Positions 11,706-57,792 are shown, numbered from the stretch's first letter. The stretch: DNA of 64,000 nucleotides from Desulfomonilia bacterium (GCA_050014195.1 JBEKDT010000001.1:224001-288000); one strand, 5' to 3'. A program made the numbers and translations. The notes: a model not told the origin generated them from the letters alone.

Positions 11706-12785
11706 TCAATAACGAATGGGGTATAGAATGGTATACTTCATCCCTGACCATGTCCCCGGAATAACAATCAGATAGGAATCCATGGCAAAGAGGCCATCGC
11801 TTTTTCTCCTGGCAGTTACAATGATACGGTTCGTCTTCCTGGTCAGGTGAAAGGGTCCTTTGCAGCTTAAAACCCCTGTCCTGGAATCAAATTGGGCATT
11901 GAGTCTCTTCTTCTCAGAGAGAAACAGGTTGATCCGGCCAGGTTCATAGAGCCCGGGATCTTTCAGGGTGATGGACACCTCGGGAATGGTATCGGATGCA
12001 AGCATCCCGCTTTCAGGGAAACGCCAAGTCACGGGAAGGGGGGGATTCATGAGTTTCTTGGCAAAATCATTGAGGCTCATCTCGGCGCCTACTACGGCCT
12101 GGCGGGGTAAGCGGTCGAACTCGGCGCCTTCTCCGACGCTCCCGGGGTCGGATGTGAGCATGAGACGGAAGCCTGCACGTTTTGCAACAGCACGGACAGT
12201 GTCATTATATTGGCCATAAGGATATGCGAAGTACTTAATCCGGCGGCCCAGGTTCTTTTCCAGGGTTTCCTTGGAGCCTTTGACCTCCTGTTCTATTTCC
12301 TTTTCCTTGAGATTTATCAATCGTGGGTGTGTATAGGTGTGGCACCCCACCTCACCTCCCCAGGCGTCAAGCTGCTTAAGCTGTTCCCAGCTCATGTAAT
12401 TTTTAACACCTATGCCATGGGTGAAGACAAAGATGCAGAAGGGAAAATGGTACTTCTTGAGGATGGGGACCGCCTTATCATACCCTGAGATAAATCCGTC
12501 ATCGATGGTTATGACAACGCCCTTTTCAGGAACGGGACGCTTGCCCTCCAAACAATCGGCAAGCTGATCCATGGAGAGCACCGTATACCCGTGAGACTTT
12601 AAGTATTCCATCTGCAGGTCAAATTGGGTGCTGGAGGTTGTAGTGGTGGGAAATCTGTTTTCATCGAATCTGTGGTAGAGGAGCACCGAGATGTATGCGG
12701 ATGCTGCTGTCGTCAGGCCCGGCATCAGGCAGATTCCAGCAGCGATAATCAGCACCAGGCGAAAATGAAGAGATGCCCTCATCAT
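11706..12785 (-). CDS. Secreted polysaccharide deacetylase (CE4/NodB)
   Basis: LLYHRF, ITIDDG, HTYTHP, FAYPYG; signal peptide; start uncertain. Confidence 0.85.
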   Translation of the reverse strand: MMRASLHFRLVLIIAAGICLMPGLTTAASAYISVLLYHRFDENRFPTTTTSSTQFDLQMEYLKSHGYTVLSMDQLADCLEGKRPVPEKGVVITIDDGFISGYDKAVPILKKYHFPFCIFVFTHGIGVKNYMSWEQLKQLDAWGGEVGCHTYTHPRLINLKEKEIEQEVKGSKETLEKNLGRRIKYFAYPYGQYNDTVRAVAKRAGFRLMLTSDPGSVGEGAEFDRLPRQAVVGAEMSLNDFAKKLMNPPLPVTWRFPESGMLASDTIPEVSITLKDPGLYEPGRINLFLSEKKRLNAQFDSRTGVLSCKGPFHLTRKTNRIIVTARRKSDGLFAMDSYLIVIPGTWSGMKYTILYPIRY

Positions 12786-12840
12786 AAACAAACTCTGAAG
12801 AGATCCACTCTCGTAGGCTTTATCCGCCTTCAGGTAAGCG

Positions 12841-13665
12841 CTATTGGAGCCGGTAGTCATCATAGCTCTTCAGCGCATTGTAGCTGATGAGCAGCTCCAC
12901 CCTGCGCACATACTCGATTCCCATCTGGGAATAATTCCGCAGCCCCTGTGCCAAGGCGAAAGAATCATACGGCGGCTGACTCAAAGAACGTATGTATCTC
13001 AGTTCTTCATATTGCGGGTTGGTGTTGATGTTCCACATATAATAATCAATGCACGACTGCAGGTCATTGAAAACAGACACGGTGAATTCCTTATCACTAT
13101 CCTGTTCCTTGGGTACCATGCCATAACCCGAAGGGGTGCGCAGACCGAAGATATTGTTCCCTTTAATGCAGAAACGTGAGGTCCCCCATCCTGACTCAAT
13201 GGCGGCCTGGGCAATGATGAGGGAGACAGGGAGAACGTTTACCCTCTTGAGAAGCTCTTGAACCATCATCTCGTAGGAGTTGGATTCCACCAGATACACG
13301 CGGGCGAATGAGATGAGAGTCTCTTTTTCCTGCGGGGTCAGGTACGGCAGCCTCTGCCGTAGATGCTCTATGACGAGTCGCTGATTGCGGATAGCCCCGT
13401 TTGCTCGCAGCACGAGCGGCAACAGAATCTCGATAAGATACTGTTTCCTTTCCTGCACGTCATCGATTTGTGCAAGCTGGTCCGGCATACTCGCGGTGTA
13501 TTGGTATTCGATGGAGGGACTCTGCGCGGGTACGGCACGAGGTGCGCCTGTACCTGTGTTCATCCTCGTCGGTATTAAGGCAGCCCCGATCAGTGAAGCA
13601 AAAAAACACACCGAAATAACCGTGAGTCTTCGCAGCTGACCCTTATTACTTTGTGTACCATCCAT
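12841..13665 (-). CDS. Bax-like glucosaminidase (GH73) peptidoglycan hydrolase
   Basis: IAQAAIESGWGTSRF, NNIFG, YMWNINT..Y, N-terminal TM. Confidence 0.85.
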   Translation of the reverse strand: MDGTQSNKGQLRRLTVISVCFFASLIGAALIPTRMNTGTGAPRAVPAQSPSIEYQYTASMPDQLAQIDDVQERKQYLIEILLPLVLRANGAIRNQRLVIEHLRQRLPYLTPQEKETLISFARVYLVESNSYEMMVQELLKRVNVLPVSLIIAQAAIESGWGTSRFCIKGNNIFGLRTPSGYGMVPKEQDSDKEFTVSVFNDLQSCIDYYMWNINTNPQYEELRYIRSLSQPPYDSFALAQGLRNYSQMGIEYVRRVELLISYNALKSYDDYRLQ

Positions 13666-13819
13666 AGTGCACTCTGTGCTGAAGTCATGTGCTCAAACTC
13701 GTTTTATTTACCTGACATATTTTCACAGAGCAAGAAAAAAATGCTGCAACGTTCCAAAGAATCAGGAACCTTCACCCCAAACCGTTTTACACATGAAAAA
13801 CACTTCGCCAAAAACTTCC

Positions 13820-45066: not shown

Positions 45067-45141
45067 GGCGGCATAGCCAAGTGGTAAGGCGACGGTCTGC
45101 AAAACCGTTATTCACCGGTTCAAATCCGGTTGCCGCCTCCA
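45067..45141 (+). tRNA. tRNA-Cys (GCA)
   Basis: Acceptor GGCGGCA/TGCCGCC, D-loop AGCCAAGTGGTAAGGC, anticodon loop CTGCAAA, T-loop GGTTCAAATCC, encoded CCA. Confidence 0.97.
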
Positions 45142-45554: not shown

Positions 45555-46715
45555 TTATACAGATATTTCTTTAAGTTTAGCCAAGTATAATATTCCCTCA
45601 TTTAATGTATTAAATGTGACATCGGCGCATGCATGGATCATTGCTAAATACTTTGATATCTCATCATTTGATTTAGATTTCTCATCTACAAAAATAATAT
45701 GTTTTCCAAGTGCCTTCGCATATCCTATTTCCAAAGCTAAAGCATAACCCCCCGGATTATTTTTTTCTAAGTAAGCAAAAATGAGATCAGATTTCCGAAT
45801 AGCTTGAAGATCCCAATTTGTATACTGAAGAGTCTCTGATAATTGATGGTTGCGAGGATCAAGAAAACTTAATGAAGGATTTAATTTTATAACATCACTT
45901 TGCCAATTTGATGTAAATCCCCCAGCTAAATATATAACCATATTTTTATTCTCTTTAGGAGCTTCGTTACGAAGGCTATCCACTGCCATGCTGAAAGGAA
46001 TAGTTAATGCCCGCTTGTTAAATTCATATCTTCTGTCTAGAAATATTATAAAAAGAAACAACATAAACCATGCATACATTGTACTGTAGTTTATTGATAA
46101 AATGCTATCGTTGCCAAATATACTAGTTAGCCACCATACCAACAATAGTATGATTATTACAGTAGCAATACCTTGACTTAGTAATGAAAGGAACATGAAA
46201 CGATAAGTTAAATCTCTATCTATCCCAGGAATACTCATTGCGACATTTCGTAAAGAATGTAATTTACTGATTGAGTTACTAAAGTTCATGTTTTTTGTTA
46301 GTTCTAATGGCATTCTCTCAATAAAATATTTAACAGAAGGATCATCAACAAATTCATTAGACCATACTTCTTCTGGCACTAAGGAAGAAGGGAGTACCTT
46401 ATAGATATCAGGAAGAAACTTGAACTTGCATAATAAGAATTTGTTTAGCTTTATAATATACTTTAAAATAAAATTTATAGGCCGGATTACCAGCCAATTA
46501 CCGAAGCTAGTAATACCATTACCTAATACATATGCTAAAATTATAAAAAACCATATTTTTGCTGCCTCTCCGAGGCCACAAGTAATTATTAAATGTTGAA
46601 ACATTTTGGGGAGTAGAATCCCAATACCAAGCAAAAGAATTGCTCCAGGAATTATTGAGCCAATAATATCGTTAAAAAATCTTAAAGAGATCGTTAAAAC
46701 ATCTTCTGATTTCAT
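45555..46715 (-). CDS. Multi-TM protein with C-terminal nucleoside 2-deoxyribosyltransferase/N-glycosidase-like domain
   Basis: About four hydrophobic segments, then IYLAGGF..DP..WDLQAIRKSDLIFAY..GYALALEIGYAKALGKHII; AGGAGG RBS. Confidence 0.75.
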   Translation of the reverse strand: MKSEDVLTISLRFFNDIIGSIIPGAILLLGIGILLPKMFQHLIITCGLGEAAKIWFFIILAYVLGNGITSFGNWLVIRPINFILKYIIKLNKFLLCKFKFLPDIYKVLPSSLVPEEVWSNEFVDDPSVKYFIERMPLELTKNMNFSNSISKLHSLRNVAMSIPGIDRDLTYRFMFLSLLSQGIATVIIILLLVWWLTSIFGNDSILSINYSTMYAWFMLFLFIIFLDRRYEFNKRALTIPFSMAVDSLRNEAPKENKNMVIYLAGGFTSNWQSDVIKLNPSLSFLDPRNHQLSETLQYTNWDLQAIRKSDLIFAYLEKNNPGGYALALEIGYAKALGKHIIFVDEKSKSNDEISKYLAMIHACADVTFNTLNEGILYLAKLKEISV

Positions 46716-46880
46716 CGGATCATACCTCCTAATAAAATCAAGCGATTATTTTTCCTAAAAATTCAGTTTGCGGGGATGCAATTAAATGCGAAAACTTCAA
46801 CTAACCAATCTAACTCAAGTTTAATTAAATAGCTTTCAATATGCTTCATATATCTAGTATGAATTGCACTGTATTCCATA

Positions 46881-48098
46881 TTATAATCCCCTACCTGTCT
46901 TACAAGGCTTAATTTTGTTCATAACTTCATGCAAAGCATCAATTGATTCGTGTATATCTATACCTGAAGTGAATCGTCCAATACTAAACCGTATCGAGGC
47001 CCTCGCATCAGTATCAGAAAGTCCTATTGCGCGTAACACATGTGAGGGTTCTGGAATACCTGACGTACAGGCAGCACCGGTTGAGGCGGCTACAAAAGGC
47101 TGAAGTGCCCCAATAAGTTCATGCGCATCTAAGCTTCTGAAACATATATTTGCGTTGCCCGGATGCCTGAGGTCACCGCTTGCGCCGTTAATATGGATGT
47201 TTGTGGTAATGAGGTTAAGTTGTTCAATGAATTGGTCACGCAATGCACGGATCTTTATGCGTTCCATAACCGCGTCTGCTGATGTGACGAGTTCTATCGC
47301 CGCACCAAATCCAACACAAAGAGGAACAGGAAGAGTTCCGGCTCGGAGACCATTCTGTTGACCTCCACCATAGATAAGAGGTTTGACCAATCGCTGAACA
47401 TCGCGTCTAATAAATAGAGCACCAATGCCTTTCGGCCCATAAAGTTTGTGAGCAGATAGGCTAAGAAAATCGACATCGAGCTCATTAACATCTAGCGGCA
47501 TTGCCGTGAGGGCTTGTACAGCATCTGTATGTATTAGTGCTCCAACATTTCGGCAAAGTGATGTTACATCTTTCACGGGCTGAATAGTTCCGATCTCGTT
47601 ATTTACAGTCATTACTGAGACAAGTAATACATCAGTGGCTAAACGTTCTTCTAATATATCAAGTCGAATGATGCCATTATGATCAACAGGCAATTGTTCA
47701 ATAACAAGATCAAACTGTTCACTAGCTGCATAAGCAGCTGCAAAGACAGATTTGTGCTCTATTGAGCTGACAAGGATTCGACGACGGTCTGCACTTGCAT
47801 ATCCCGCAGCACCTATGATTGCTAAATTATTCCCCTCTGTGGCCCCTGATGTAAAAATGATCTCATCAGGATCTGCAACGATAGCAGATGCAATTTTTTG
47901 GGTTGCTTCATCTATTGCAGCATTTGCCTCCCAACCAAAGGCATGGTCAGAAGAATGTGGGTTACCGGGATGATCAAAAAAGAAAGGCTTCATGGCTTCA
48001 ATCACCCGTTGATCAACGGGCGTCGAAGCCTGATAGTCCATGTATATTCGATTCTTTATCAATTTACACATCTTATCAAATTTAGGGCACTCGCTCAT
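46881..48098 (-). CDS. Cysteine desulfurase (IscS/DndA/SspA-like)
   Basis: YMDYQASTP, GNPHS, TSGATE, NNEIG, HTDAVQ, SAHKLYGPKG, catalytic STGAACTSG; start uncertain (48062-48098). Confidence 0.92.
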   Translation of the reverse strand: MSECPKFDKMCKLIKNRIYMDYQASTPVDQRVIEAMKPFFFDHPGNPHSSDHAFGWEANAAIDEATQKIASAIVADPDEIIFTSGATEGNNLAIIGAAGYASADRRRILVSSIEHKSVFAAAYAASEQFDLVIEQLPVDHNGIIRLDILEERLATDVLLVSVMTVNNEIGTIQPVKDVTSLCRNVGALIHTDAVQALTAMPLDVNELDVDFLSLSAHKLYGPKGIGALFIRRDVQRLVKPLIYGGGQQNGLRAGTLPVPLCVGFGAAIELVTSADAVMERIKIRALRDQFIEQLNLITTNIHINGASGDLRHPGNANICFRSLDAHELIGALQPFVAASTGAACTSGIPEPSHVLRAIGLSDTDARASIRFSIGRFTSGIDIHESIDALHEVMNKIKPCKTGRGL

Positions 48099-48135
48099 TT
48101 CACTTATTAAGAACTGGAGATAGCCTCCAGGTTCC

Positions 48136-48167
48136 TTGACAATACTCAAGGCATTATGTATTGTCAA
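48136..48167. promoter_or_regulatory. Symmetric bidirectional sigma70 promoter between the desulfurase and DUF4007 genes
   Basis: TTGACAATAC-N12-GTATTGTCAA reads TTGACA-17 nt-TATTGT on both strands. Confidence 0.75.
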
Positions 48168-48195
48168 CCTGGATGAAACCTCCAGGAAAGAACTT

Positions 48196-49167
48196 ATGGT
48201 AAGAGGCCCTCTTTATCAAGCCGAGAGCAAGCCCCTTTTTTCAGGACATGAAACCTTTCCTCTCCGGTATGGTTGGTTAAAAAAAGTATATGATACTATT
48301 TCAAAAAATTCTAACGACCCTGACAACAAACATATTTTCCTAAAAGACGACGCAATAGCCCGTTTTGGTGTTGGAAAAAACATGGTAGCATCAATGCGAC
48401 ATTGGGCGATGTGTTGTGGAGTGATTACTGAAGACGAACCGACGGGGCATCTTATCCCAACAGCATTTGGTGATTTTCTCTTCGGCCCAAGAGGAAATGA
48501 TCCATATTTAGAGAATCTTGCTTCTATCTGGCATCTTCATTGGTACCTTTGCTCCTGCGATAATAGCCGGCCGCTTAAAACAACATGGTTTTGGGTCTTC
48601 AATCATTTTAATGAAGTTAATTTCAAAAGGGATGATCTTGTCGAAGGACTAATGAAACTTGCCAAGGCTCGCAATTGGCAACGTGTTTCAAGGACAACAG
48701 TTCAACGAGATGTTGAATGTCTTGTTAGAATGTATGAGACACGAACGTCAAACAACATTGGGACAGTTGAGGACAACTTAGAATCTCCTATGGCAGAGCT
48801 TGGTCTCATTCGTGGTATTAAAGGTTATTTTCACCTTGTCCGTGGTCCCAAACCAACACTTCCTAATGGCATTTTTACTATGGCCCTGGACTCCTTTTGG
48901 AACCATATTGGTACTTCACACTCCATCTCTTTCGAAATGATCGCTCATGAGCCTGGATCACCCGGACGAATATTCCTTCTTGATGAATCAGACATAATAG
49001 ACCGTTTACTTGTTCTTGAAAATTTAACGCAGGGTACTCTTAGATGGTCGGAGACAGCAGGATTGAAGCAAGTTCTTCGAGATCATCCTCTTGGTGAAAA
49101 AGACCGACAAACACTATTGGTTAATGATTATCGGGAATCGCACCATCGGAAGGAGGCGTTCCGATGA
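48196..49167 (+). CDS. DUF4007 protein, SspB-like (putative nickase)
   Basis: FSGHETFPLRYGWLKK, FGVGKNMV.SMRHW, DPYLE, WHLHW, ELGL, PGRIF, ETAGL. Confidence 0.85.
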   Translation: MVRGPLYQAESKPLFSGHETFPLRYGWLKKVYDTISKNSNDPDNKHIFLKDDAIARFGVGKNMVASMRHWAMCCGVITEDEPTGHLIPTAFGDFLFGPRGNDPYLENLASIWHLHWYLCSCDNSRPLKTTWFWVFNHFNEVNFKRDDLVEGLMKLAKARNWQRVSRTTVQRDVECLVRMYETRTSNNIGTVEDNLESPMAELGLIRGIKGYFHLVRGPKPTLPNGIFTMALDSFWNHIGTSHSISFEMIAHEPGSPGRIFLLDESDIIDRLLVLENLTQGTLRWSETAGLKQVLRDHPLGEKDRQTLLVNDYRESHHRKEAFR

Positions 49168-52100
49168 GCCTTTCTGATCTTGTTCACGTTGCTAGCCGGT
49201 TTCAACGCTCAATCCGCATAGATACGGATCTTCATGATTCGAAGATACTTGAAGGATTTGTTTGTCCAAGATCATCAGCATATGTGCTCCTTACAATGGC
49301 CCAGCACATTGTGGATACAGGCCACACGGCATTCACATGGACCGGTCCATACGGTAGTGGCAAATCAAGCCTAGTTGTTGCTTTAAGCGCACTTCTTAAT
49401 GGTAATTCCACACTACAAAACCAAGCTGTGGCTATTGTTGGAAAAAACATTACAGACACTCTATGGAAAGCCTTACCTCTTAAAAAGAAAGGGTGGCGTA
49501 TACTTCCTGTTGTTGGTCAACGTTCCGTTCCAGCAGAAGTTATTGGTAAAGCACTTATTACAAATGGCTTTATTAAAAAGAAGGATGTAGGAACCTGGAC
49601 AGATGATCTCGTGATTTCTCTTCTGATCAAGCTAGCCAAAGAGCGTTCCAATATATATGGCGGATTAATTGTCTTCCTCGATGAAATGGGGAAGTTTCTT
49701 GAGGGGGCTGCTCAAGATGGTGTTGATATCTACTTTTTTCAACAACTTGCTGAAATAGCCGTTCGAAGTAAAGGCCGCCTTCTTGTTATTGGTGTTCTGC
49801 ATCAAGCTTTTGAGGAATATGCACAGCGATTAACTCGTGATCAACGTGATGAATGGGCAAAAGTCCAAGGTCGTTTTATTGATCTTATTGTTAATACTGC
49901 AGGTGAAGAACAATTAGATCTGCTTGCCCGAGCTATTCAGAGCGATTATTCAGCCAAGCATCTAACATCTTTATGCCAAACGGTTGCGAATGTAGTAAGA
50001 GCTGGCAGGCCAAGTGCTGCTATTGATATGGCAATCACTTTAGAGCGTTGTTGGCCCCTTCATCCAGTAGTAGCGTGCCTACTCGGACCTATCTCTCGCC
50101 GACGATTTGGGCAAAATCAACGCAGCTTGTTTGGTTTTCTGAACTCGGCTGAACCTTTCGGGTTCCAAGACTTCCTTCACAATGCCAACGAGAAAGATAT
50201 CTTTGGTCCGGATCACTTATGGGACTACCTCCGAGTTAATTTGGAGCCTGCAATCATGTCTTCCCCAGATAGCCACAGGTGGTCTATAGCAGTGGAGGCA
50301 ATCGAACGTTGTGAGACTATGGGAGCATCTATGGTCCACATCCAACTTCTGAAGACTATAGCTCTTTTAGATCTTTTCCGTGAGCGATCAGGGTTAAGTG
50401 CAACCTATGACTTGTTAACAGATTCTGTACTAGGAAAGGTCTCTAATACAGAAGTGATTGATATTCTCAAGCAACTTCAATCCTGGTCATTAATTATTTA
50501 TCGTAAACATCTTGGTGCATTTGCTATTCATGCTGGAAGCGATTTTGATCTCGATCACGCTTTAAAGGAAATGCTTGTCTCTTTTCAAGATGTGGATTTC
50601 CGAGAACTACGTGCATTAGCAGGATTACAGCCTATCTTAGCAAAACGACATTACCACGAAACGGGAGCTCTTCGATGGTTTGACGTTGACCTTGCACCCC
50701 TCACTGATGTGACGACACATATATCTATAGAATCCTCCTCCAACGGAGCTATTGGCCGCTTTCTGCTTGTTATACCAACTGCAAATGAATCAAAATCTAT
50801 GGCTTCTCAAATCTGTCAGGCTGTTGTCCATACATCGAGTGAGAATGTTGTAATTGGGTTATCTACTGCTTCCTGGCGAGTGATAGATTTAGCTCGAGAG
50901 TTTATTGCTATCACAAAAATTAGCGAAGAACGCCCTGAACTGAGCGGAGATCCAGTAGCACGACGTGAAGTATTCGCCCATATAGCCGATGTCAGATCAC
51001 GATTAGAAGCAGAACTCCAAAAGATGTTTGATACTGCAAATTGGTATCGCTCTGGTGTTGATCCAGTTCGATATAGCTATTCTGAGCTTAACACTTTGGC
51101 CTCAAACATAGCAGATACTATGTATAGTCAAGCTCCAAAGCTTCCCAATGAACTACTAAATCGAAAAAAACCCTCATCGAATGCTGTTGCTGCTCAGAAA
51201 GCATTACTGAAATTGATGGTACAGCATGAGGGCGAACCACGTCTCTCAATTCGAGGATTTCCTGCAGAGGGTGGTCTCTTAGAGTCCTTACTCTTAAAAA
51301 CAGATCTTTACCGGTTCCTTCCAAAACGAGGCTGGCAGTTTTTAACCCCGTCAAAAAGACACGATCCATGCGGGCTACTTCCTGCTTGGAAAGCTGTAAC
51401 CGAAATCTTGAAAAATAATTCCCACCGCACTGTCTCCTTGGCTGAAATTTTTACAATATGGCAACAACCACCTTATGGAATTAAGAATGGCCTCTTACCT
51501 ATTCTCGCTGTAGCATTTCTTCTTGCCCAACGAGATAAATTGGCCTTTTATCGTGATGGCATATTCCAAGCTCGTTTTACTGATCTAGATGTTGATTACT
51601 TAACTAATGATCCATCATCGATCCAGTTTCGATGGATGGATTTATCATTCCTTTCAAGAAAATTTCTTTCGGGTCTTGCTAAGATAGTATGCGAACTTGA
51701 TAATCAGAATAGCCTTGTTCATTTGGAACCAATCGATGTGGCACGTGGGCTCGTAGGTATTTTTGAGAATCTCAGACCATGGGTGAAGAGGACTAGTCGC
51801 CTCTCTGCAAGTGCTCTCCAAGTCCGTTCAATCTTTAAATCAGCTTCGGATCCGAACAAGTTCCTGTTCGATGATATACCGGGAATATTTGGAGAGATTG
51901 ATGCGAAAGAACCAGAACTTAATATAGAGCAAGTTATTAATTGTGTTCGAGAAGGTCTCTTTGAACTGATTCAGGCTTATTCTCATATGCTAGATAGGCT
52001 TCAACAAATGATGCTCATGGAACTTCAAGTCCCTAATACATCTCCCCAAGCATATGGTGAGCTGCGTGATCGCGCAGAAAACATTATTCAACTAACAGGG

Positions 52101-52559
52101 GATTTTCGACTAAATGCTTTTATAGGCCGATTGAGTCAGTTTAATGGTTCCGAAATGGACATTGAGGGAATTGCAAGTCTTGCAGCTAACAAACCCCCTC
52201 GAGACTGGGTCGATGCTGACCTTGATCAAGCGGGGATAGAAATTGCAGACTTAGCGCAAAGATTTATTCGAGCAGAAGCGTACGCCCGAGTGAAAGGGCG
52301 CCCAGATAAACGGCAAGCCATGGCAGTCGTTATCGGAATGGATGGGCGCCCAACGCCAGTAACAGGTGAGTTTACAATTACTGATACAGAGAGAGTTGCA
52401 GTTGATGATATAGTTGCAAAGGTCGAGCAAGCTCTTTCGAGCACAGATCAGCATGGAAGAAATATTATTCTTGCCGCACTTGCTGAGATGAGTGCCCGGT
52501 ATTTGAATGATGATATTGAGGGTCAAATATCAAAGATGGTAGCCAAGAAAGTAGGCTGA
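49164..52559 (+). CDS. Large P-loop ATPase, SspC-like
   Basis: RFQRSIRI, Walker A GPYGSGKS, Walker B FLDEMGKFLE, LHQAF, WAKVQGRF, WPLHP, FGQNQRSLFGFL, PPYGIK. Confidence 0.82.
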   Translation: MSLSDLVHVASRFQRSIRIDTDLHDSKILEGFVCPRSSAYVLLTMAQHIVDTGHTAFTWTGPYGSGKSSLVVALSALLNGNSTLQNQAVAIVGKNITDTLWKALPLKKKGWRILPVVGQRSVPAEVIGKALITNGFIKKKDVGTWTDDLVISLLIKLAKERSNIYGGLIVFLDEMGKFLEGAAQDGVDIYFFQQLAEIAVRSKGRLLVIGVLHQAFEEYAQRLTRDQRDEWAKVQGRFIDLIVNTAGEEQLDLLARAIQSDYSAKHLTSLCQTVANVVRAGRPSAAIDMAITLERCWPLHPVVACLLGPISRRRFGQNQRSLFGFLNSAEPFGFQDFLHNANEKDIFGPDHLWDYLRVNLEPAIMSSPDSHRWSIAVEAIERCETMGASMVHIQLLKTIALLDLFRERSGLSATYDLLTDSVLGKVSNTEVIDILKQLQSWSLIIYRKHLGAFAIHAGSDFDLDHALKEMLVSFQDVDFRELRALAGLQPILAKRHYHETGALRWFDVDLAPLTDVTTHISIESSSNGAIGRFLLVIPTANESKSMASQICQAVVHTSSENVVIGLSTASWRVIDLAREFIAITKISEERPELSGDPVARREVFAHIADVRSRLEAELQKMFDTANWYRSGVDPVRYSYSELNTLASNIADTMYSQAPKLPNELLNRKKPSSNAVAAQKALLKLMVQHEGEPRLSIRGFPAEGGLLESLLLKTDLYRFLPKRGWQFLTPSKRHDPCGLLPAWKAVTEILKNNSHRTVSLAEIFTIWQQPPYGIKNGLLPILAVAFLLAQRDKLAFYRDGIFQARFTDLDVDYLTNDPSSIQFRWMDLSFLSRKFLSGLAKIVCELDNQNSLVHLEPIDVARGLVGIFENLRPWVKRTSRLSASALQVRSIFKSASDPNKFLFDDIPGIFGEIDAKEPELNIEQVINCVREGLFELIQAYSHMLDRLQQMMLMELQVPNTSPQAYGELRDRAENIIQLTGDFRLNAFIGRLSQFNGSEMDIEGIASLAANKPPRDWVDADLDQAGIEIADLAQRFIRAEAYARVKGRPDKRQAMAVVIGMDGRPTPVTGEFTITDTERVAVDDIVAKVEQALSSTDQHGRNIILAALAEMSARYLNDDIEGQISKMVAKKVG

Positions 52560-52561
52560 AA

Positions 52562-53398
52562 ATGAGTGAAGGGGAAAGGCATGTGCTTGGCCTATCAGGG
52601 GGGCGTGATAGCGCCGCATTGGCTGTGTACATGCGACAACACCATCCTGAACTTGACATCGACTTCTTTTTTACTGACACAGGGAAGGAACTACCTGAAG
52701 TTTATGAATTTCTCGGACGCTTGGAAGGTTTTCTGGGAAAACCAATTTTACGATTAAATCCCGACCGAGATTTTGATTTCTGGTTAAAACAGTATAACAA
52801 CTTCCTTCCCTCAGCTCAGACGAGGTGGTGTACCCGTCAGTTGAAGCTTCGCCCTTTTGAAGATTGGTTGCGTCCTCAATTGGATGCAGGGATGAAGATA
52901 TTTAGTTATGTGGCAATTCGAGCAGATGAAAACTACCGAGATGGCTATACTTCAAAAAAAGAAAGATTGACTGTATGCCTACCCTTCAAATCCGCCGGGA
53001 TTGACAAAATCGGTGTTTTAGATATTTTGGATAATGCTGGCCTAGGTCTCCCGAAATACTACGCATGGAGAACTCGCTCCGGGTGCACCTTCTGCTTTTT
53101 TCAACAGAAGATTGAGTGGGTTCGTTTATTAGAACATCACCCCGACAAATTCGATGAGGCAAAGCAATATGAGAAAACAGCAGTGGAACACTGTTCACCA
53201 TTTACATGGAGCCAAGGAGAATCGCTAGAGGCCTTATCAAAACCAGAACGTATCGAAGCCATTAAGAATGATCACGAAATGCGTTTGTCACGTTTAAAGT
53301 GTAATACCAGGCCAAATCCTTTACGGTCAGAAAATGAACCGCTTGATATTGATGACCTTTACGGGCAAGCTAAAGTATGTTTAGCCTGCCATAAGTAA
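52562..53398 (+). CDS. PAPS-reductase-fold protein, SspD-like
   Basis: PP-loop SGGRDS, DTGKELPE, RWCTRQLK, IRADE, RSGCTFCFFQ, C-terminal CLACH. Confidence 0.87.
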   Translation: MSEGERHVLGLSGGRDSAALAVYMRQHHPELDIDFFFTDTGKELPEVYEFLGRLEGFLGKPILRLNPDRDFDFWLKQYNNFLPSAQTRWCTRQLKLRPFEDWLRPQLDAGMKIFSYVAIRADENYRDGYTSKKERLTVCLPFKSAGIDKIGVLDILDNAGLGLPKYYAWRTRSGCTFCFFQQKIEWVRLLEHHPDKFDEAKQYEKTAVEHCSPFTWSQGESLEALSKPERIEAIKNDHEMRLSRLKCNTRPNPLRSENEPLDIDDLYGQAKVCLACHK

Positions 53399-53418
53399 TT
53401 TCCTAGGAGGACAAAAGA

Positions 53419-55056
53419 ATGTCCGGAGCCCCAGGAATCTCGATTCAAAATGTCCTTAGAAGTGCTCCGGAGAAAGCACTTCGAGACTTTGTAGGTGATT
53501 CGACGATCAATGTTTTATCAGCACTTAATCCAGACTTGGTCACAAAAGATAATTTAGTGGAGCTTGCAAATCAATCAGCATCCCCATTTGAAATTATACA
53601 GCGAAAGGCATTGCGTGATCGTCTTATTGGACTTCTTCCAATCAATAAGGCGCAAGAGCTCGCAAAAAAGATGGGTATACCTGCAGAGAGTAAGTTCCTC
53701 TATGACCGTCTTATTATTGAAGCAAACGAAAGGCGAGCAGAGTCTATTCTTCTAAGTTTCTTTGGTGTTGTCATTCCCGATCGGGCACGAGGGGCTGAAG
53801 AGGCAGCCCAAAAGGAAATATTTCCGACATATAGCTTGTTTCCTCACCAAAGAAGTGTTGTAGAGCGCGCTCTTGTTGCGTTACATGAAGATCCATACAA
53901 GACGGTGGTACATATGCCTACAGGGTCGGGTAAGACACGCACTGCGATGCATATAGTGGCTGATGTACTTAATAAGAACCCCAATCGTTTGGTGATATGG
54001 CTGTCACAGAGTGCAGAATTATTGGAGCAAGCTGCAGATGAATTTGAGAAAGCATGGGGAGCTCTTGGCTCGTTTTCCACATCAGTTTACCGTTTCTGGG
54101 GGGATCATGATCCAAACATAGAAGAAGCTCGTAAGGGGTTTCTTGTTGCTGGTCTAGGTAAGCTTCATGCTTTATCAAAGCGTGATGCTAACATGATAAT
54201 GAGGCTTGGTGATCGTGCACCGTTAACGGTTTTTGATGAGGCGCACCAGGCAATTGCCCCAACATTCAAGTCTCTTATTAATTATCTTAAAGATAAGAAG
54301 CCAGGAAACGCTCTATTAGGTTTAACCGCAACACCTGGTAGAACATGGGCAAATATAGCAGCCGATGCTGTTTTGTCTGATTTTTTCGGTAACCATAAGG
54401 TGGTCTTAGAAATTGAAGGTTACACTAATCCCGTCCACTATTTAATTGAAGAAGGGTATCTTGCTCGACCAACATTCAGAACCTTGAATGTTGACCCAGG
54501 CTTTAATATTTCAGAAAAAGATTTAAATGATATGTCCGAGGAATATGACATCCCCACCTCAGTGCTCGATAAACTTGCCATGAATGATCAGCGGAACATC
54601 CGAATTATCACAACAGTTGAGGATTTATGCCAGAGGCATAATAGAATAATAGTTTTTGCTGCAACAGTTGGACATGCTCACTTGATCTCATCCATACTGA
54701 CTTTACGTGGAACTCACTCATTTGTAATAACCGGTTATACAGATCGTACAACCCGTGAGAGTATCATTGCTAAGTTCAAAAGCAATACCTCTGAACCGTT
54801 GGTTCTTTGTAATTTTGGCGTACTTACAACAGGTTTTGATGCTCCAAAGACAAGTGCTTTAATTATTGCCCGCCCTACCAGGTCTCTGGTATTATATAGT
54901 CAAATGGTTGGCCGTGCCATTCGTGGCGAACGTGCGGGGGGCAACAAATCCGCAGAAATCGTTACAGTCGTAGACCCACAGTTGCCCGGATTTGGTGATA
55001 TTGCAGATGCATTCACAAATTGGGAGGATGTTTGGGGCGATGACAAATGCATGTGA
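53419..55056 (+). CDS. SF2 DEAH helicase (Res-subunit-like)
   Basis: MPTGSGKT, DEAH, TATP, LTTGFDAP, QMVGRAIR. Confidence 0.9.
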   Translation: MSGAPGISIQNVLRSAPEKALRDFVGDSTINVLSALNPDLVTKDNLVELANQSASPFEIIQRKALRDRLIGLLPINKAQELAKKMGIPAESKFLYDRLIIEANERRAESILLSFFGVVIPDRARGAEEAAQKEIFPTYSLFPHQRSVVERALVALHEDPYKTVVHMPTGSGKTRTAMHIVADVLNKNPNRLVIWLSQSAELLEQAADEFEKAWGALGSFSTSVYRFWGDHDPNIEEARKGFLVAGLGKLHALSKRDANMIMRLGDRAPLTVFDEAHQAIAPTFKSLINYLKDKKPGNALLGLTATPGRTWANIAADAVLSDFFGNHKVVLEIEGYTNPVHYLIEEGYLARPTFRTLNVDPGFNISEKDLNDMSEEYDIPTSVLDKLAMNDQRNIRIITTVEDLCQRHNRIIVFAATVGHAHLISSILTLRGTHSFVITGYTDRTTRESIIAKFKSNTSEPLVLCNFGVLTTGFDAPKTSALIIARPTRSLVLYSQMVGRAIRGERAGGNKSAEIVTVVDPQLPGFGDIADAFTNWEDVWGDDKCM

Positions 55057-56863
55057 TGATGTTCAAAATGGAAGTGTAATTATCCCTACCAATCTTGCTA
55101 TCCGCGCAATGCGTGATAGTGGTTATCGTAATACTGCTCATGCTTTAGCAGAGTTAATAGATAACTCTGTACAAGCGACAGCAACAACAGTCGAAGTCTT
55201 CTGTATAGAGGAGATGGTCAGTGTAAACGGAAAACAGCGACGTCGGGTCACCAAGATCGCTGTTCTAGATAATGGTACGGGCATGCCACCAGAAGTACTA
55301 CGAATGGCTCTTCAATTTGGTAATGGCACTCACCTAAATGATCGATCTGGAATTGGACGTTTCGGGATAGGACTCCCGAATGCCTCCATCTCTCAAGGAA
55401 AACGAGTTGACATCTGGACATGGCAAAGCGGTCCAGACAATGCAATTTATAGCTATCTGGATGTTGATGAGATTGAAAAAGGGCAGATTCAGTTTGTTCC
55501 CGAACCGGAACATGATCCTATACCATCTGAATGGCGTAATCGAGGTAGAAGCTTTGGAACGACAGGATCTCTCGTCGTTTGGAGTAATTTCGATGATCAA
55601 CGACTAACATGGAAGAGTGCTCGGGCAACTCTTGAGAACACTGAGTGGATCGTTGGTAGGATATATCGCAAGTATATACATAAAGGTGATCTACGGATTC
55701 AGTTACGTGCTTTTGATGGAATGAATATTCTTTTCGAAAGGGATACATGCGTAAATGATCCACTATATCAAATGGCCCCATCCTCAACGCCGGCACCATT
55801 CAATAACAAACCGATGTTCGAGCAATGGGGTGAAGATGATCAAGTCTTCGATATAAATTTCAAAGGAACGAATCACAAAGTCATAGTCCGAGCTTCTTGG
55901 GCAAATCGAGAAACACTACCCGAGGACGGAACAGATCGTGGTTCTAAAGACTATGGTAAGCATGCAGGGAAGAATATTGGTGTCTCAATTGTAAGGGCTG
56001 ATCGAGAACTTGTTTTGGATCCTTCCTGGGCTATTGGATATGACCCCGTTGAGCGGTGGTGGGGTATTGAAGTTAACTTTCCTCCTGAACTTGATGAGAT
56101 CTTTGGCGTCACAAACAACAAGCAGGCAGCAACAATTTTTTCCCACATGGTCAACTTCGATTGGAAAACCGAAGCGGATCCGGGAGAGGAGTACCTTGAC
56201 TTCAAACGCCGGATCTCTGAAGAAGGTGATCATCGTGCAGATCTACTAGATATCGTTAATTACATCCGGACAATTCTCTCACGCATCCGAAGTGCATTAA
56301 GTGACCAAACTAAGGGAAGACGATCAGGGGCGAAGCGTCATGATGATACTTCTGTAGAAGACCGCGCCTCGACAAAGTTCAAGGAAAGAGCACGTTCTGG
56401 CCATGAAGCAGAATCCGACAGTGGTGTTTTTGACAAAGATGCTCAAAACGCCCTTCTGGAAGATTTGGTAACAGAAAAGAACTATGAAGAAGACACAGCA
56501 AAACAGATGGTTGAAGCAACCCTACGTCGAGGTCGAAATGTAATTTTCATAGAGTCCGCAAGCGAGATGGACGCCTTTTTTTCTGTGGAGCAAAAACCCG
56601 GCGGCATCACCCAAGTTATCTTTAATAGCTCACACCCAGCTTATGATTATCTCATCAAAACACTTGAATCAGATACTACAGAGGCAACAGATAAAGAATT
56701 AATAGGTCGTATTCAAAATGCTTCTGATACAATCTGGATGCTCTTCGCGGCATGGGCGCGACAAGAGATCGAGGACATGCCTGGGCGTGAAAAGCTACGT
56801 CGGATGCGACATGACTGGGGGCGGATGGCTCGGGATTTCCTCTCCGATGATACAGAGGACTAA
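55040..56863 (+). CDS. MORC-like GHKL ATPase
   Basis: AMRDSGY, ALAELIDNS, DNGTGM, GRFGIGL Bergerat motifs, S5-like region with GVTNNKQ. Confidence 0.85.
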   Translation: MTNACDDVQNGSVIIPTNLAIRAMRDSGYRNTAHALAELIDNSVQATATTVEVFCIEEMVSVNGKQRRRVTKIAVLDNGTGMPPEVLRMALQFGNGTHLNDRSGIGRFGIGLPNASISQGKRVDIWTWQSGPDNAIYSYLDVDEIEKGQIQFVPEPEHDPIPSEWRNRGRSFGTTGSLVVWSNFDDQRLTWKSARATLENTEWIVGRIYRKYIHKGDLRIQLRAFDGMNILFERDTCVNDPLYQMAPSSTPAPFNNKPMFEQWGEDDQVFDINFKGTNHKVIVRASWANRETLPEDGTDRGSKDYGKHAGKNIGVSIVRADRELVLDPSWAIGYDPVERWWGIEVNFPPELDEIFGVTNNKQAATIFSHMVNFDWKTEADPGEEYLDFKRRISEEGDHRADLLDIVNYIRTILSRIRSALSDQTKGRRSGAKRHDDTSVEDRASTKFKERARSGHEAESDSGVFDKDAQNALLEDLVTEKNYEEDTAKQMVEATLRRGRNVIFIESASEMDAFFSVEQKPGGITQVIFNSSHPAYDYLIKTLESDTTEATDKELIGRIQNASDTIWMLFAAWARQEIEDMPGREKLRRMRHDWGRMARDFLSDDTED

Positions 56864-56868
56864 TATCT

Positions 56869-57792
56869 GTGCTCGGTGAAAAGCTTCTTATAGCTGCTCG
56901 TGATGCGCAGCACGATATTACACTCATTGCCCCTTTTATAAAGGTTGATGCGTTGACGAAGGTTCTTGATAATGTTAATGCATCCATACCTCTCCGAATT
57001 ATTACAAGATGGATTCCAGCCGAAATCGCCGCAGGCATCTGTGACCTGGAAATTTTCGATATACTACAAGGAAGATCAAATTCTGAATTATTTGTTCATC
57101 CTTTTCTACACGCGAAGCTCTTCCGTTTTGATGATGTGGCCTTCTTTGGTTCAGCTAACCTAACTCGTAAAGCTCTTGGTTGGGCTGCACCTGCAAATGT
57201 CGAATTACTGCATGCCCCAAAAGATATGCTCAACGAGCTCAAAACCTTTGAAGTTGAGCTCATGGCATCTGTAATCCGAGTAGATGAGGTATATCGTGAC
57301 TTTATGTGCAAGCTAGTGGAGAAAGCAAAATCACAACCAATTGCAATAGCAGAGTTATTTGATGCAGAAACACACCAAGTGGAGTATTCTTGGCTGCCGA
57401 AATGTCGTACACCTGAATGGTTGTGGTTAGTGTACACTAACCCAGAAAAAGCAAGAACTCACATGGTTGAGTCGGCTTTTGAGGCTGCACAAATGGATTT
57501 GGTTACGCTTTACATCACACCAGGACTCCCCGAAACGTTATTCAATCAGCATGTGGCTGCTATTTTTGGAAGGATGCCATTGGTACAAGAGATCGATATC
57601 AGCGCCCGCGAAGGTGTAACAACAGATAAAGCAGTAGAGCTAATTGAAAGTGCAGCTAGTGGAGCTGAGTTACCCTATTCACCTTCTGATACTTGGGAAG
57701 TTTTAATGATGTGGCTTATGCATTTCTTCCCGCAACGTTATCGTAGAGAGCCAGAGACAGAGGTGTTTAGGCAAGGGCGTGTAATTGGTTGA
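56869..57792 (+). CDS. Phospholipase D-fold (single HKD) putative nuclease
   Basis: IAPF, HAKLFRFDD..FGSANLT, NVE motifs. Confidence 0.82.
   Translation: MLGEKLLIAARDAQHDITLIAPFIKVDALTKVLDNVNASIPLRIITRWIPAEIAAGICDLEIFDILQGRSNSELFVHPFLHAKLFRFDDVAFFGSANLTRKALGWAAPANVELLHAPKDMLNELKTFEVELMASVIRVDEVYRDFMCKLVEKAKSQPIAIAELFDAETHQVEYSWLPKCRTPEWLWLVYTNPEKARTHMVESAFEAAQMDLVTLYITPGLPETLFNQHVAAIFGRMPLVQEIDISAREGVTTDKAVELIESAASGAELPYSPSDTWEVLMMWLMHFFPQRYRREPETEVFRQGRVIG

Follow-up and report, generated by a model that had tools for sequence, protein, structure and literature searches.

We analysed a 64,000-nt stretch of DNA from a Desulfomonilia bacterium (GCA_050014195.1, JBEKDT010000001.1:224001-288000; the window, with positions counted from its first letter) and describe in it a locus, at positions 45555 to 57792, in which genes for DNA phosphorothioate (PT) modification of the SspABCD type are followed by genes for a superfamily 2 (SF2) helicase, a MORC-type GHKL ATPase and a PLD-family nuclease (the triad). 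Judged from gene content and comparison across genomes, this locus is likely to be a complete PT-based system for telling self from non-self DNA, made up of SspABCD and a helicase-MORC-PLD restriction cassette that is non-homologous to the partners SspE and SspFGH. The triad is probably a third, unnamed kind of Ssp restriction partner, because in other bacteria this conserved cassette is nearly always found together with ssp genes.

The locus comprises eight open reading frames (ORFs) in two divergent arms, with sspA and a gene for a predicted membrane protein carrying a nucleoside 2-deoxyribosyltransferase-like domain (TM-NDT, taken up below) on the minus strand, and sspB-sspC-sspD-helicase-GHKL-PLD tightly packed on the plus strand. 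The seven genes that make up the modification module and the triad are as follows, with the E-values of their profile matches:

46881..48071, minus strand: sspA, cysteine desulfurase (IscS/DndA-like); PADLOC SspA 6.7e-132 and DndA 8.6e-129, Pfam Aminotran_5 2.1e-80
48196..49167, plus strand: sspB (DUF4007); PADLOC SspB 2.7e-103, Pfam DUF4007 5.3e-85
49164..52559, plus strand: sspC, large BrxC-like P-loop ATPase, 1131 aa; PADLOC SspC E=0, 1315 bits, model positions 1-1044 of 1045
52562..53398, plus strand: sspD, protein of PAPS-reductase fold, 278 aa; PADLOC SspD 1.4e-133 over the full model, Pfam PAPS_reduct 3.9e-6
53419..55056, plus strand: SF2 helicase/translocase, 545 aa; Pfam ResIII 3.8e-23, Helicase_C 2.2e-12
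55040..56863, plus strand: MORC-type GHKL ATPase, 607 aa; Pfam HATPase_c_3 2.6e-22; ORF open from TTG 54992
56869..57792, plus strand: single-HKD PLD-family nuclease, 307 aa, GTG start; Pfam PLDc_2 9.8e-5 (below cut-off), HKD motif

Within the plus-strand arm, sspB and sspC overlap by 4 nt (49164-49167), sspC and sspD are separated by 2 nt, sspD and the helicase gene by 20 nt, and the GHKL and PLD genes by 5 nt; the helicase and GHKL genes overlap by 17 nt if the latter starts at the in-frame ATG 55040, and by 65 nt if it starts at TTG 54992. A preliminary description of this locus had reported eight ORFs in two arms with close coupling in the right arm, and both its coordinates and its junctions agree with ours, while its family assignments are borne out by PADLOC and Pfam matches. 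The ORFs of sspA and sspB are likewise as it gave them, but the TTG starts listed for both (sspA is open to 48167 and sspB from 48136) overlap inside a palindrome. ATG starts at 48071 for sspA and 48196 for sspB are likely instead, since they fit the family alignments better.

The PADLOC models of SspA, SspB, SspC and SspD are covered at near full length, and with all four genes present the locus holds what is predicted to be a complete SspABCD module. In the same searches, and as the preliminary description had anticipated, no protein of a named system matched any triad protein above cut-off, either in PADLOC or in NCBIfam.

The association between the triad and ssp genes recurs well beyond the window. 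Metagenome contigs were scanned with a GHKL alignment, yielding 80 loci (numbered with an L below) onto which the eight window proteins were mapped by tblastn; clustering at 95% nucleotide identity and removal of three self-identical loci left 66 non-self clusters. Of the 50 loci with room for the helicase, GHKL and PLD genes, 49 had all three and kept them in the same order, the exception being L030. Genes of the ssp module were present at 29 of 30 non-redundant clusters with at least 2.5 kb on both flanks, and at all 23 with at least 4 kb. Included in these linked counts are L025, L070 and L078, which were ssp-negative by tblastn and in which PADLOC revealed a divergent ssp module (BrxP-like PAPS reductase 4.1e-93, SspB 1.2e-59, SspC 8.8e-154, SspA 7.5e-30). 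Across the 66 clusters, 26 were co-linear, 19 tail-to-tail and 3 of the variant-ssp type, and 18 were too short to assign.

Plasmids gave the same picture. Twelve plasmid records covered at least 80% of the query, and ssp genes adjoined the triad-family locus in all six that were examined: Roseobacter litoralis pROLI83, Hymenobacter sp. GOD-10R, Mesorhizobium onobrychidis pOM4, Agrobacterium pAtCFBP7129b (a variant), Trichormus variabilis ATCC 29413 plasmid A and Planktothrix agardhii p2. On the Trichormus plasmid the order is sspB-C-D ... helicase-GHKL-PLD-cysteine desulfurase, all on one strand, so that the triad, placed between sspD and the desulfurase gene, is embedded inside the ssp operon. 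The linkage was also found in a Rhizomicrobium metagenome-assembled genome and in one genome (G038) of a 401-genome sample of the window's phylum, and ssp-linked triads altogether span Pseudomonadota, Bacteroidota and Cyanobacteriota. The preliminary description had cast the triad as the defence arm of the locus; its co-occurrence with sspBCD elsewhere (29/30 metagenome clusters, 6/6 plasmids) and the lack of an SspFGH match, described below, both support that proposal.

In the 401-genome sample, 13 genomes encoded SspD and 2 encoded the GHKL protein, both of them among those 13. Ten non-self Ssp loci from this sample were compared, the SspD-positive genomes G323 and G307 being left out. The triad occurred in one of them (G038) and a 786-aa DUF262-like gene in another, while 5 of the 10 carried three co-directional ORFs of the sizes of SspF, SspG and SspH (X, ~540 aa and ~1750-1840 aa). 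Three of these five resembled the F/G/H proteins of E. coli S10 by tblastn, with all three genes matching in L108 and F alone in L111 and in L113. The remaining loci were unclassified.

These linkage data bear directly on whether the triad could be an ATP-dependent restriction system in its own right, perhaps type IV-like, that happens to adjoin Ssp and neither needs nor reads PT. Defence islands do juxtapose unrelated systems, L030 has no ssp genes, the helicase and PLD profiles both match PDB entry 7clg, and the helicase matches the PADLOC type IV methylation-dependent restriction endonuclease (mREase) model at 1.7e-13. However, linkage at 29/30 and 23/23 clusters, through at least three gene orders and three phyla, is hard to reconcile with chance proximity, as are the position of the Trichormus triad between sspD and the cysteine desulfurase gene, the 20-nt gap between sspD and the helicase gene in the window, and the restriction of the GHKL gene to SspD-carrying genomes in the 401-genome sample (2 of 13 SspD-positive). 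We consider an independent system very improbable.

Each of the triad proteins belongs to a recognizable family and carries conserved catalytic residues. The helicase consists of an N-terminal region (residues ~1-135), a RadD-like core of two RecA domains and an invariant C-terminal tail, LPGFG...NWEDVW. Its Q motif and the motifs PTGxGKT, DEAH, TATPGR and QMVGRAxRG do not vary among the 23 aligned helicases. RadD is its closest relative among PDB profiles (6jde, 6.9e-40; 7clg follows at 1.3e-14), and it matches the NCBIfam RadD model at 1.1e-38, below that model's cut-off. No relative of the N-terminal region was found among Pfam or PDB profiles. The tail (residues ~520-545, window 54960-55056) may be a peptide on which a partner protein docks; the DNA encoding it overlaps the start of the GHKL gene.

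The second protein comprises a GHKL domain, an S5/transducer-like domain and a helical C-terminal region of ~250 aa for which Pfam and PDB profiles gave no relative. Its best PDB-profile matches are human MORC2 (1.7e-5) followed by MORC4 and SMCHD1. Its AlphaFold2 (AF2) model aligns with N-terminal ATPase modules over ~356-375 columns for MutL and MLH1 and over ~360-470 columns for SMCHD1 and MORC2/3/4, placing an S5/transducer domain after the GHKL domain (pLDDT 67.7). All 24 aligned sequences share residues E38, N42, D77, G79, G81, G104, G106 and G109. The window protein also contains GVSIVRADREL (family consensus GVSIVRAGREL), which fits the motif GhXhhpXXRhl at all positions except the one after R, where E replaces a hydrophobic residue; this motif is described as specific to the S5 domain of MORC proteins (PMC2292703). 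The family is large, with proteins of ~605 aa and 3,634 matches at E<=0.001 among 8,000 scored candidates, and its top 120 relatives, 55-74% identical, are named, where they are named, only 'ATP-binding protein' or 'hypothetical protein'.

The third protein combines an N-terminal Nuc/NucT-like domain with an all-helical C-terminal domain (residues ~135-290). Each chain has a single HxK...GSxN motif on a PLD fold, and all 28 aligned sequences share H81, K83, G94, S95 and N97. Its AF2 model (pLDDT 90.6) was most similar in Foldseek to NucT (6ehi, 1.9e-5, TM-score 0.66 normalized by target), then to Zucchini, with the likeness spanning the first ~150 residues; the helical C-terminal domain drew no match in this search with the whole model. 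As mentioned above, the PLD and helicase profiles share a match to 7clg; this entry is cited in work on SauUSI, a type IV enzyme, and we take it to be SauUSI itself.

A known effector encoded elsewhere in the genome could in principle serve the Ssp module. The window genome is 100% complete by marker genes, and its only DUF262 (GmrSD_N) protein, of 707 aa, is encoded ~90 kb upstream (G000:C1:134331-134984; L084 1465-3588). This protein matches the PADLOC 'Orf5' model (1.8e-196) and the HEC-06 models at full length and the SspE models only over residues ~11-106, marking it as a candidate separate type IV restriction gene of the GmrSD kind on the basis of these profiles. No SspG-like match was found in the window genome, and the sole SspH-like match is an FtsK motor domain. 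With no SspE or SspG-like gene elsewhere in the genome, the triad is the only candidate Ssp effector there. SspE itself was rejected as the effector of this locus, none of the eight proteins matching SspE or DUF262 and the genome's single DUF262 protein being Orf5-like.

Could the triad instead be a divergent form of the already named SspFGH? There are similarities: both sets comprise three genes beside sspBCD, and one triad protein has a P-loop NTPase motif, while SspF is described only as having a Walker A motif, SspG without mention of domains and SspH as having an FtsK-like C-terminus (PMC8092258). Our comparison was made against E. coli S10, rather than the published SspFGH sequences of V. 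anguillarum FF-93; in S10, sspBCD is followed tail-to-tail by genes for proteins of 605 aa, 510 aa and 1803 aa, the last with an FtsK/SpoIIIE domain, an arrangement that fits the SspFGH description. Against this trio the best blastp E-value of the triad was 0.06, phmmer returned nothing, and profile hidden Markov models (HMMs) of the three triad families gave no match at E up to 10, in keeping with the preliminary description, which had treated the triad as distinct from SspFGH. Domain content differs as well, with ResIII/Helicase_C, HATPase_c_3 and PLDc_2 in the triad and no Pfam domain in S10 F or G. Homologues of S10 F and G (36-39% identity) also lie beside sspABCD in Agrobacterium, where the helicase-GHKL pair and the SspFGH-like trio are separate genes. 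We regard identity with SspFGH as having next to no likelihood.

Comparison of pairwise identities across 35 loci points to a unit that evolves together and apart from its ssp neighbours. Spearman correlations, calculated over pairs, were 0.79 for GHKL-helicase, 0.62 for GHKL-PLD and 0.64 for helicase-PLD, against 0.15-0.22 for triad proteins and SspD, and both close triads with distant SspD and the reverse were seen. By this measure the triad appears as a cohesive, co-evolving unit that has been re-paired with several Ssp lineages, and such re-pairing is easier to account for if the cassette uses the product of Ssp, PT-DNA, than if it docks on particular Ssp proteins.

The plasmid pAtCFBP7129b of Agrobacterium tumefaciens (NZ_CP039925.1; L102 and L105) illustrates this modularity. 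Its sspABCD genes face a single convergent operon of a helicase gene, a GHKL gene (40% identity), a gene for a 359-aa hypothetical protein (hyp359), SspF/G/H-like genes and a second hypothetical gene (hyp482), so that a single ssp module is combined with two stacked effector modules. The third gene after helicase and GHKL is not a PLD gene here, which suggests that the nuclease of the helicase-MORC pair is exchangeable.

Other loci show further combinations. In E. coli 042 (L098, NC_017626.1, 12983-17214), sspBCD is followed tail-to-tail by genes for a 794-aa double-GHKL protein (N-terminal HATPase_c_3, C-terminal HATPase_c) and for a 614-aa protein whose receiver-like match is weak; this pair may be another unnamed Ssp-associated module. 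Full-length homologues of the 794-aa protein (29-33% identity) are encoded directly after the PLD gene in seven triad loci (L001, L008, L017, L019, L048, L052 and L059). On the Hymenobacter sp. GOD-10R plasmid (L101 13257-15095), the PLD gene is immediately followed, in convergent orientation, by a 612-aa GmrSD_N + GmrSD_C (DUF262) gene, possibly a second, SspE-like effector that is stacked on the triad. On Planktothrix agardhii p2 (L118 11917-13380), a gene with a DUF2779 domain sits between GHKL and PLD. The variant ssp module of L025 (163-7716 and 13350-19178), L070 and L078 begins with the gene for a 577-aa BrxP-like PAPS reductase, followed by SspB-SspC-SspA; in L025 a second pair of SspB-like and SspC-like (1494 aa) genes lies downstream of the PLD gene, and in L070 and L078 an NsnA/type II REase-like gene adjoins the triad.

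In several loci, a gene of the DndB family (DGQHR) and a conserved ORF of ~176 aa without a Pfam domain lie between sspD and the helicase gene. These insertions, which account for the ~1.9 kb gaps between the two genes in some loci, are absent from the window locus and were found at the following positions:

L100, 12734-14514: DndB-family/176-aa ORF insertion
L101, 7601-8131: DndB-family/176-aa ORF insertion
L117, 5333-8154: DndB-family/176-aa ORF insertion
L026, L032 and L043: DndB-family/176-aa ORF insertions

The presence of DndB-like regulators at this junction is one reason to ask whether the triad serves the modification side, through scanning or remodelling of DNA for SspBCD or through processing or repair of PT sites and nicks, rather than restriction; another is that SspB and SspC are themselves DNA-handling proteins and that MORC and SF2 ATPases remodel DNA. 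We hold this to be very improbable. SspBCD and IscS are enough for PT modification in E. coli (PMC8092258), the triad was not seen in 11 of the 13 SspD-positive genomes of the sample, the catalytic residues of the HKD motif are invariant, and the triad sits where SspE-like or SspFGH-like genes sit in other loci.

The families involved suggest how a restriction cassette of this kind might operate. SspABCD would place single-strand PT marks on host DNA. The triad would act as an ATP-dependent restriction machine, combining a split PLD-SF2 enzyme of the SauUSI/PbeA type with a MORC clamp: the MORC dimer would load on DNA, the helicase would translocate, and a dimer of the HKD protein would nick or cleave. 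PT status could be read by the helicase's N-terminus, the C-terminus of the MORC protein or the C-terminus of the PLD protein. Control of nucleases by GHKL ATPases in defence has a precedent in VcSduA (PMC12137116).

How the mark would govern the nuclease is a separate question, to which two answers deserve attention. We lean, by a modest degree, towards protection, as described for DndFGH and SspFGH, where unmarked DNA is attacked and PT shields the host; the triad would then be toxic without ssp. Alternatively, and with clearly lower probability in our estimate though still as a genuine possibility, the triad follows an SspE-like logic, being inert alone and non-toxic without ssp, and host PT marks license it, by stimulating its ATPase, to cut unmarked DNA. 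Licensing is the logic used by SspE, a characterised Ssp effector (PMC13251355, PMC8092258); strict linkage of triad and ssp genes is equally expected under it, and the re-pairing of the triad among divergent Ssp lineages fits a reader of the mark. On the other hand, operons of MORC, helicase and nuclease genes are usually paired with methylases, in line with classical restriction-modification (R-M) logic (PMC2292703), the multi-gene partner SspFGH targets DNA that lacks the modification and is toxic when PT is absent (PMC8092258), and no PT-sensing domain was identified in the triad.

Several points weigh against our interpretation of the locus and its proposed mechanism. Genomic linkage does not separate protection by PT from licensing by PT, and no PT-binding domain was recognised in the triad proteins by Pfam, PDB profiles or Foldseek of the PLD model. 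The linkage counts derive from loci retrieved with the GHKL protein and reach only as far as relatives of ~38-43% identity; plasmid relatives at a greater distance (29-33% identity, over the N-terminal half only) lie outside them. The pairs behind the identity correlations are not independent data points, and the confidence of the GHKL AF2 model is only moderate (pLDDT 67.7). Locus L030 (9839-12737), alone among the well-flanked loci in lacking ssp genes, has GHKL and PLD genes with no helicase gene and no PADLOC match among the neighbours, although it may be a decayed remnant. Finally, hyp359 of pAtCFBP7129b is not a PLD protein, having neither an HKD motif nor a profile match.

If the triad is an Ssp partner, it has consequences for how Ssp loci are understood. 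In 2021, ~85% of 2,678 sspBCD loci were reported to be without a known partner (PMC8092258), and a third cassette would explain part of these; in our 401-genome sample it occurs in 2 of the 13 SspD-positive genomes. Ssp loci would emerge as modular, with a cassette that changes places between Ssp lineages and is found stacked on other effector modules. Prokaryotic MORC ATPases, assigned a function only by prediction since 2008, would gain a concrete, testable role tied to a defined DNA mark, and PADLOC and DefenseFinder would gain a new annotation rule. Culturable carriers include Trichormus variabilis ATCC 29413 (plasmid A), Roseobacter litoralis (pROLI83) and Mesorhizobium onobrychidis (pOM4).

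A bolder proposal, which we think unlikely, is that the bacterial MORC ATPase is itself the reader or enforcer of a DNA-backbone mark, its dimer clamping and compacting DNA that lacks PT and recruiting the helicase and the HKD nuclease. If true, this would make it a prokaryotic counterpart, and possibly an evolutionary forerunner, of the silencing of unmarked or foreign DNA by eukaryotic MORC proteins, and it would define a third, mechanistically distinct class of PT-dependent immunity that accounts for part of the partnerless sspBCD loci.

The locus lies in an island whose GC content (0.38-0.44) is below that of the flanks (~0.54); directly past the tRNA-Cys gene it drops to 0.38-0.45. Beyond the island are core genes, namely LpxK and two lipid-A acyltransferase genes on the left and SbcC on the right. 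The remaining features of the island are:

45067..45141, plus strand: tRNA-Cys (GCA), found by ARAGORN, at the left edge of the low-GC island
45555..46715, minus strand: TM-NDT gene, 386 aa; Pfam PF15891 (Nuc_deoxyri_tr2) 1.5e-9
48114..48185, no strand assigned: nested palindrome in the divergent sspA-sspB intergenic region, with a perfect 10-nt inverted repeat TTGACAATAC-N12-GTATTGTCAA
58095..59135, plus strand: IS5-like DDE transposase at the right island edge; Pfam DDE_Tnp_1 1.1e-26, DUF772 1.7e-20

The tRNA-Cys gene is the probable integration site of the island; no att-like direct repeat of its end was found at the right island border. The IS5-like transposase is outside the defence system. 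In the palindrome, the inverted repeat is enclosed by 20-nt arms of 80% complementarity. The palindrome carries mirror-image promoter-like matches, TTGACA-N17-TATTGT, and is possibly a bidirectional promoter or operator. The promoter and terminator scan as a whole did not rise above shuffled expectation (22 promoters against 31.5, and 12 terminators against 10.4), so that these matches stand as an observation only.

The TM-NDT protein has ~4 transmembrane (TM)-like hydrophobic segments in its N-terminal part, as judged from hydropathy windows, and a C-terminal nucleoside 2-deoxyribosyltransferase (NDT)-like domain, whose residues 258-385 match an NDT cluster of the Atlas by structure (TM-score 0.95). 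It gave no PADLOC match, its family is small (98 clusters), and it was found in no other genome of the 401-genome sample. Apart from the self-identical loci, it occurs beside the triad in 1 of 66 non-self clusters (L056/L057, ~12745-13778), where a full-length homologue, 26% identical over the TM half and 45% over the NDT domain, follows the PLD stop codon at ~12 nt on the same strand and so recurs in a position different from that in the window. TM-NDT is not part of the core system but a passenger of the island or possibly an occasional accessory; with a single non-self occurrence, the suggestion in the preliminary description that a membrane toxin backs up the defence does not hold for a conserved component.

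Among previously described systems, several share parts with this locus. BREX type 4 has a PAPS reductase, a BrxC-like ATPase and DUF4007, as here, and was rejected: none of the eight proteins matches PglZ or BrxL, and SspC and SspD match BrxC and BrxP only secondarily. The preliminary description had likewise set BREX aside and had seen no SspE-like, methyltransferase or PglZ gene, and no such model matched any of the eight proteins in our searches. DISARM likewise defends by means of a modification and several genes, a helicase and a PLD nuclease among them; it too was rejected, with no DrmA, DrmB (DUF1998) or methylase present and only weak DrmC matches to the PLD protein (1.8e-6).

Enzymes of the PbeA and SauUSI type resemble the triad in that an HKD/PLD nuclease works with an SF2 ATPase. 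PbeA is described as an HKD-SF2 fusion linked to Dnd PT modification, PbeC as a CxC ABC ATPase and PbeD as DndE-like (PMC10853773). Unlike PbeA, the nuclease and ATPase here are encoded by separate genes with the MORC ATPase between them, and the partner is Ssp, not Dnd; in contrast to the SauUSI/PbeA type, there is also no SRA-like reader domain. PbeABCD was rejected as an identity for the locus, with a partial PbeA match to the helicase core (residues 127-333, 6.5e-22) and no PbeB, PbeC or PbeD.

Ssp was not yet known in 2008. In that year, Iyer, Abhiman and Aravind predicted that operons of MORC or paraMORC, SFII helicase and nuclease genes are R-M-like (PMC2292703). As in the triad, a GHKL+S5 ATPase stands beside an SF2 helicase and a nuclease, occasionally of the HKD kind; in that account, however, the operons are linked to DNA methylases and Vsr-like endonucleases, with no link to PT, and a stand-alone HKD protein with the C-terminal domain seen here is not described in the available text of the paper. 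Nitrococcus mobilis and Anabaena variabilis appear in its species lists, and members of the window's GHKL family are found in both.

In the text of open literature (figures, supplements and subscription papers aside), our search found no paper linking the helicase-MORC-PLD cassette to Ssp. The words 'MORC' and 'GHKL' are absent from the available text of two PT/BREX surveys (PMC10853773, PMC12839542), and a paper from the Ssp field of May 2026 names, in its available text, only SspE and SspFGH as effectors (PMC13251355). The novelty of the arrangement, as put forward in the preliminary description, stands to that extent, but it is smaller than implied there: the parts are of already known kinds, namely Ssp modification and R-M-like MORC-helicase-nuclease operons, the latter predicted in 2008, and exchangeable effector modules are already familiar from PT systems.

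Two Ssp systems with named effectors also share parts with the locus. SspABCD-SspE (Xiong et al. 2020) has the same modification module, and its partner, as expected for the triad, is a nuclease effector with PT as the self mark (PMC13251355, PMC8092258); SspE differs in being a single protein with a DUF262 NTPase and an HNH domain, with nothing similar at the window locus. SspFGH differs in its proteins, a Walker-A protein, a protein with no recognised domain and an FtsK-like translocase standing in place of the SF2 helicase, MORC GHKL ATPase and HKD nuclease. In organization, however, SspABCD-SspFGH (Wang et al. 2021, mBio; PMC8092258) parallels the locus described here, sharing a PT module with a three-gene effector in co-linear or tail-to-tail arrangement, a sporadic and horizontally mobile distribution, and the stacking of effectors, reported there for SspE and SspFGH and seen here in Agrobacterium for triad-like and SspFGH-like genes.

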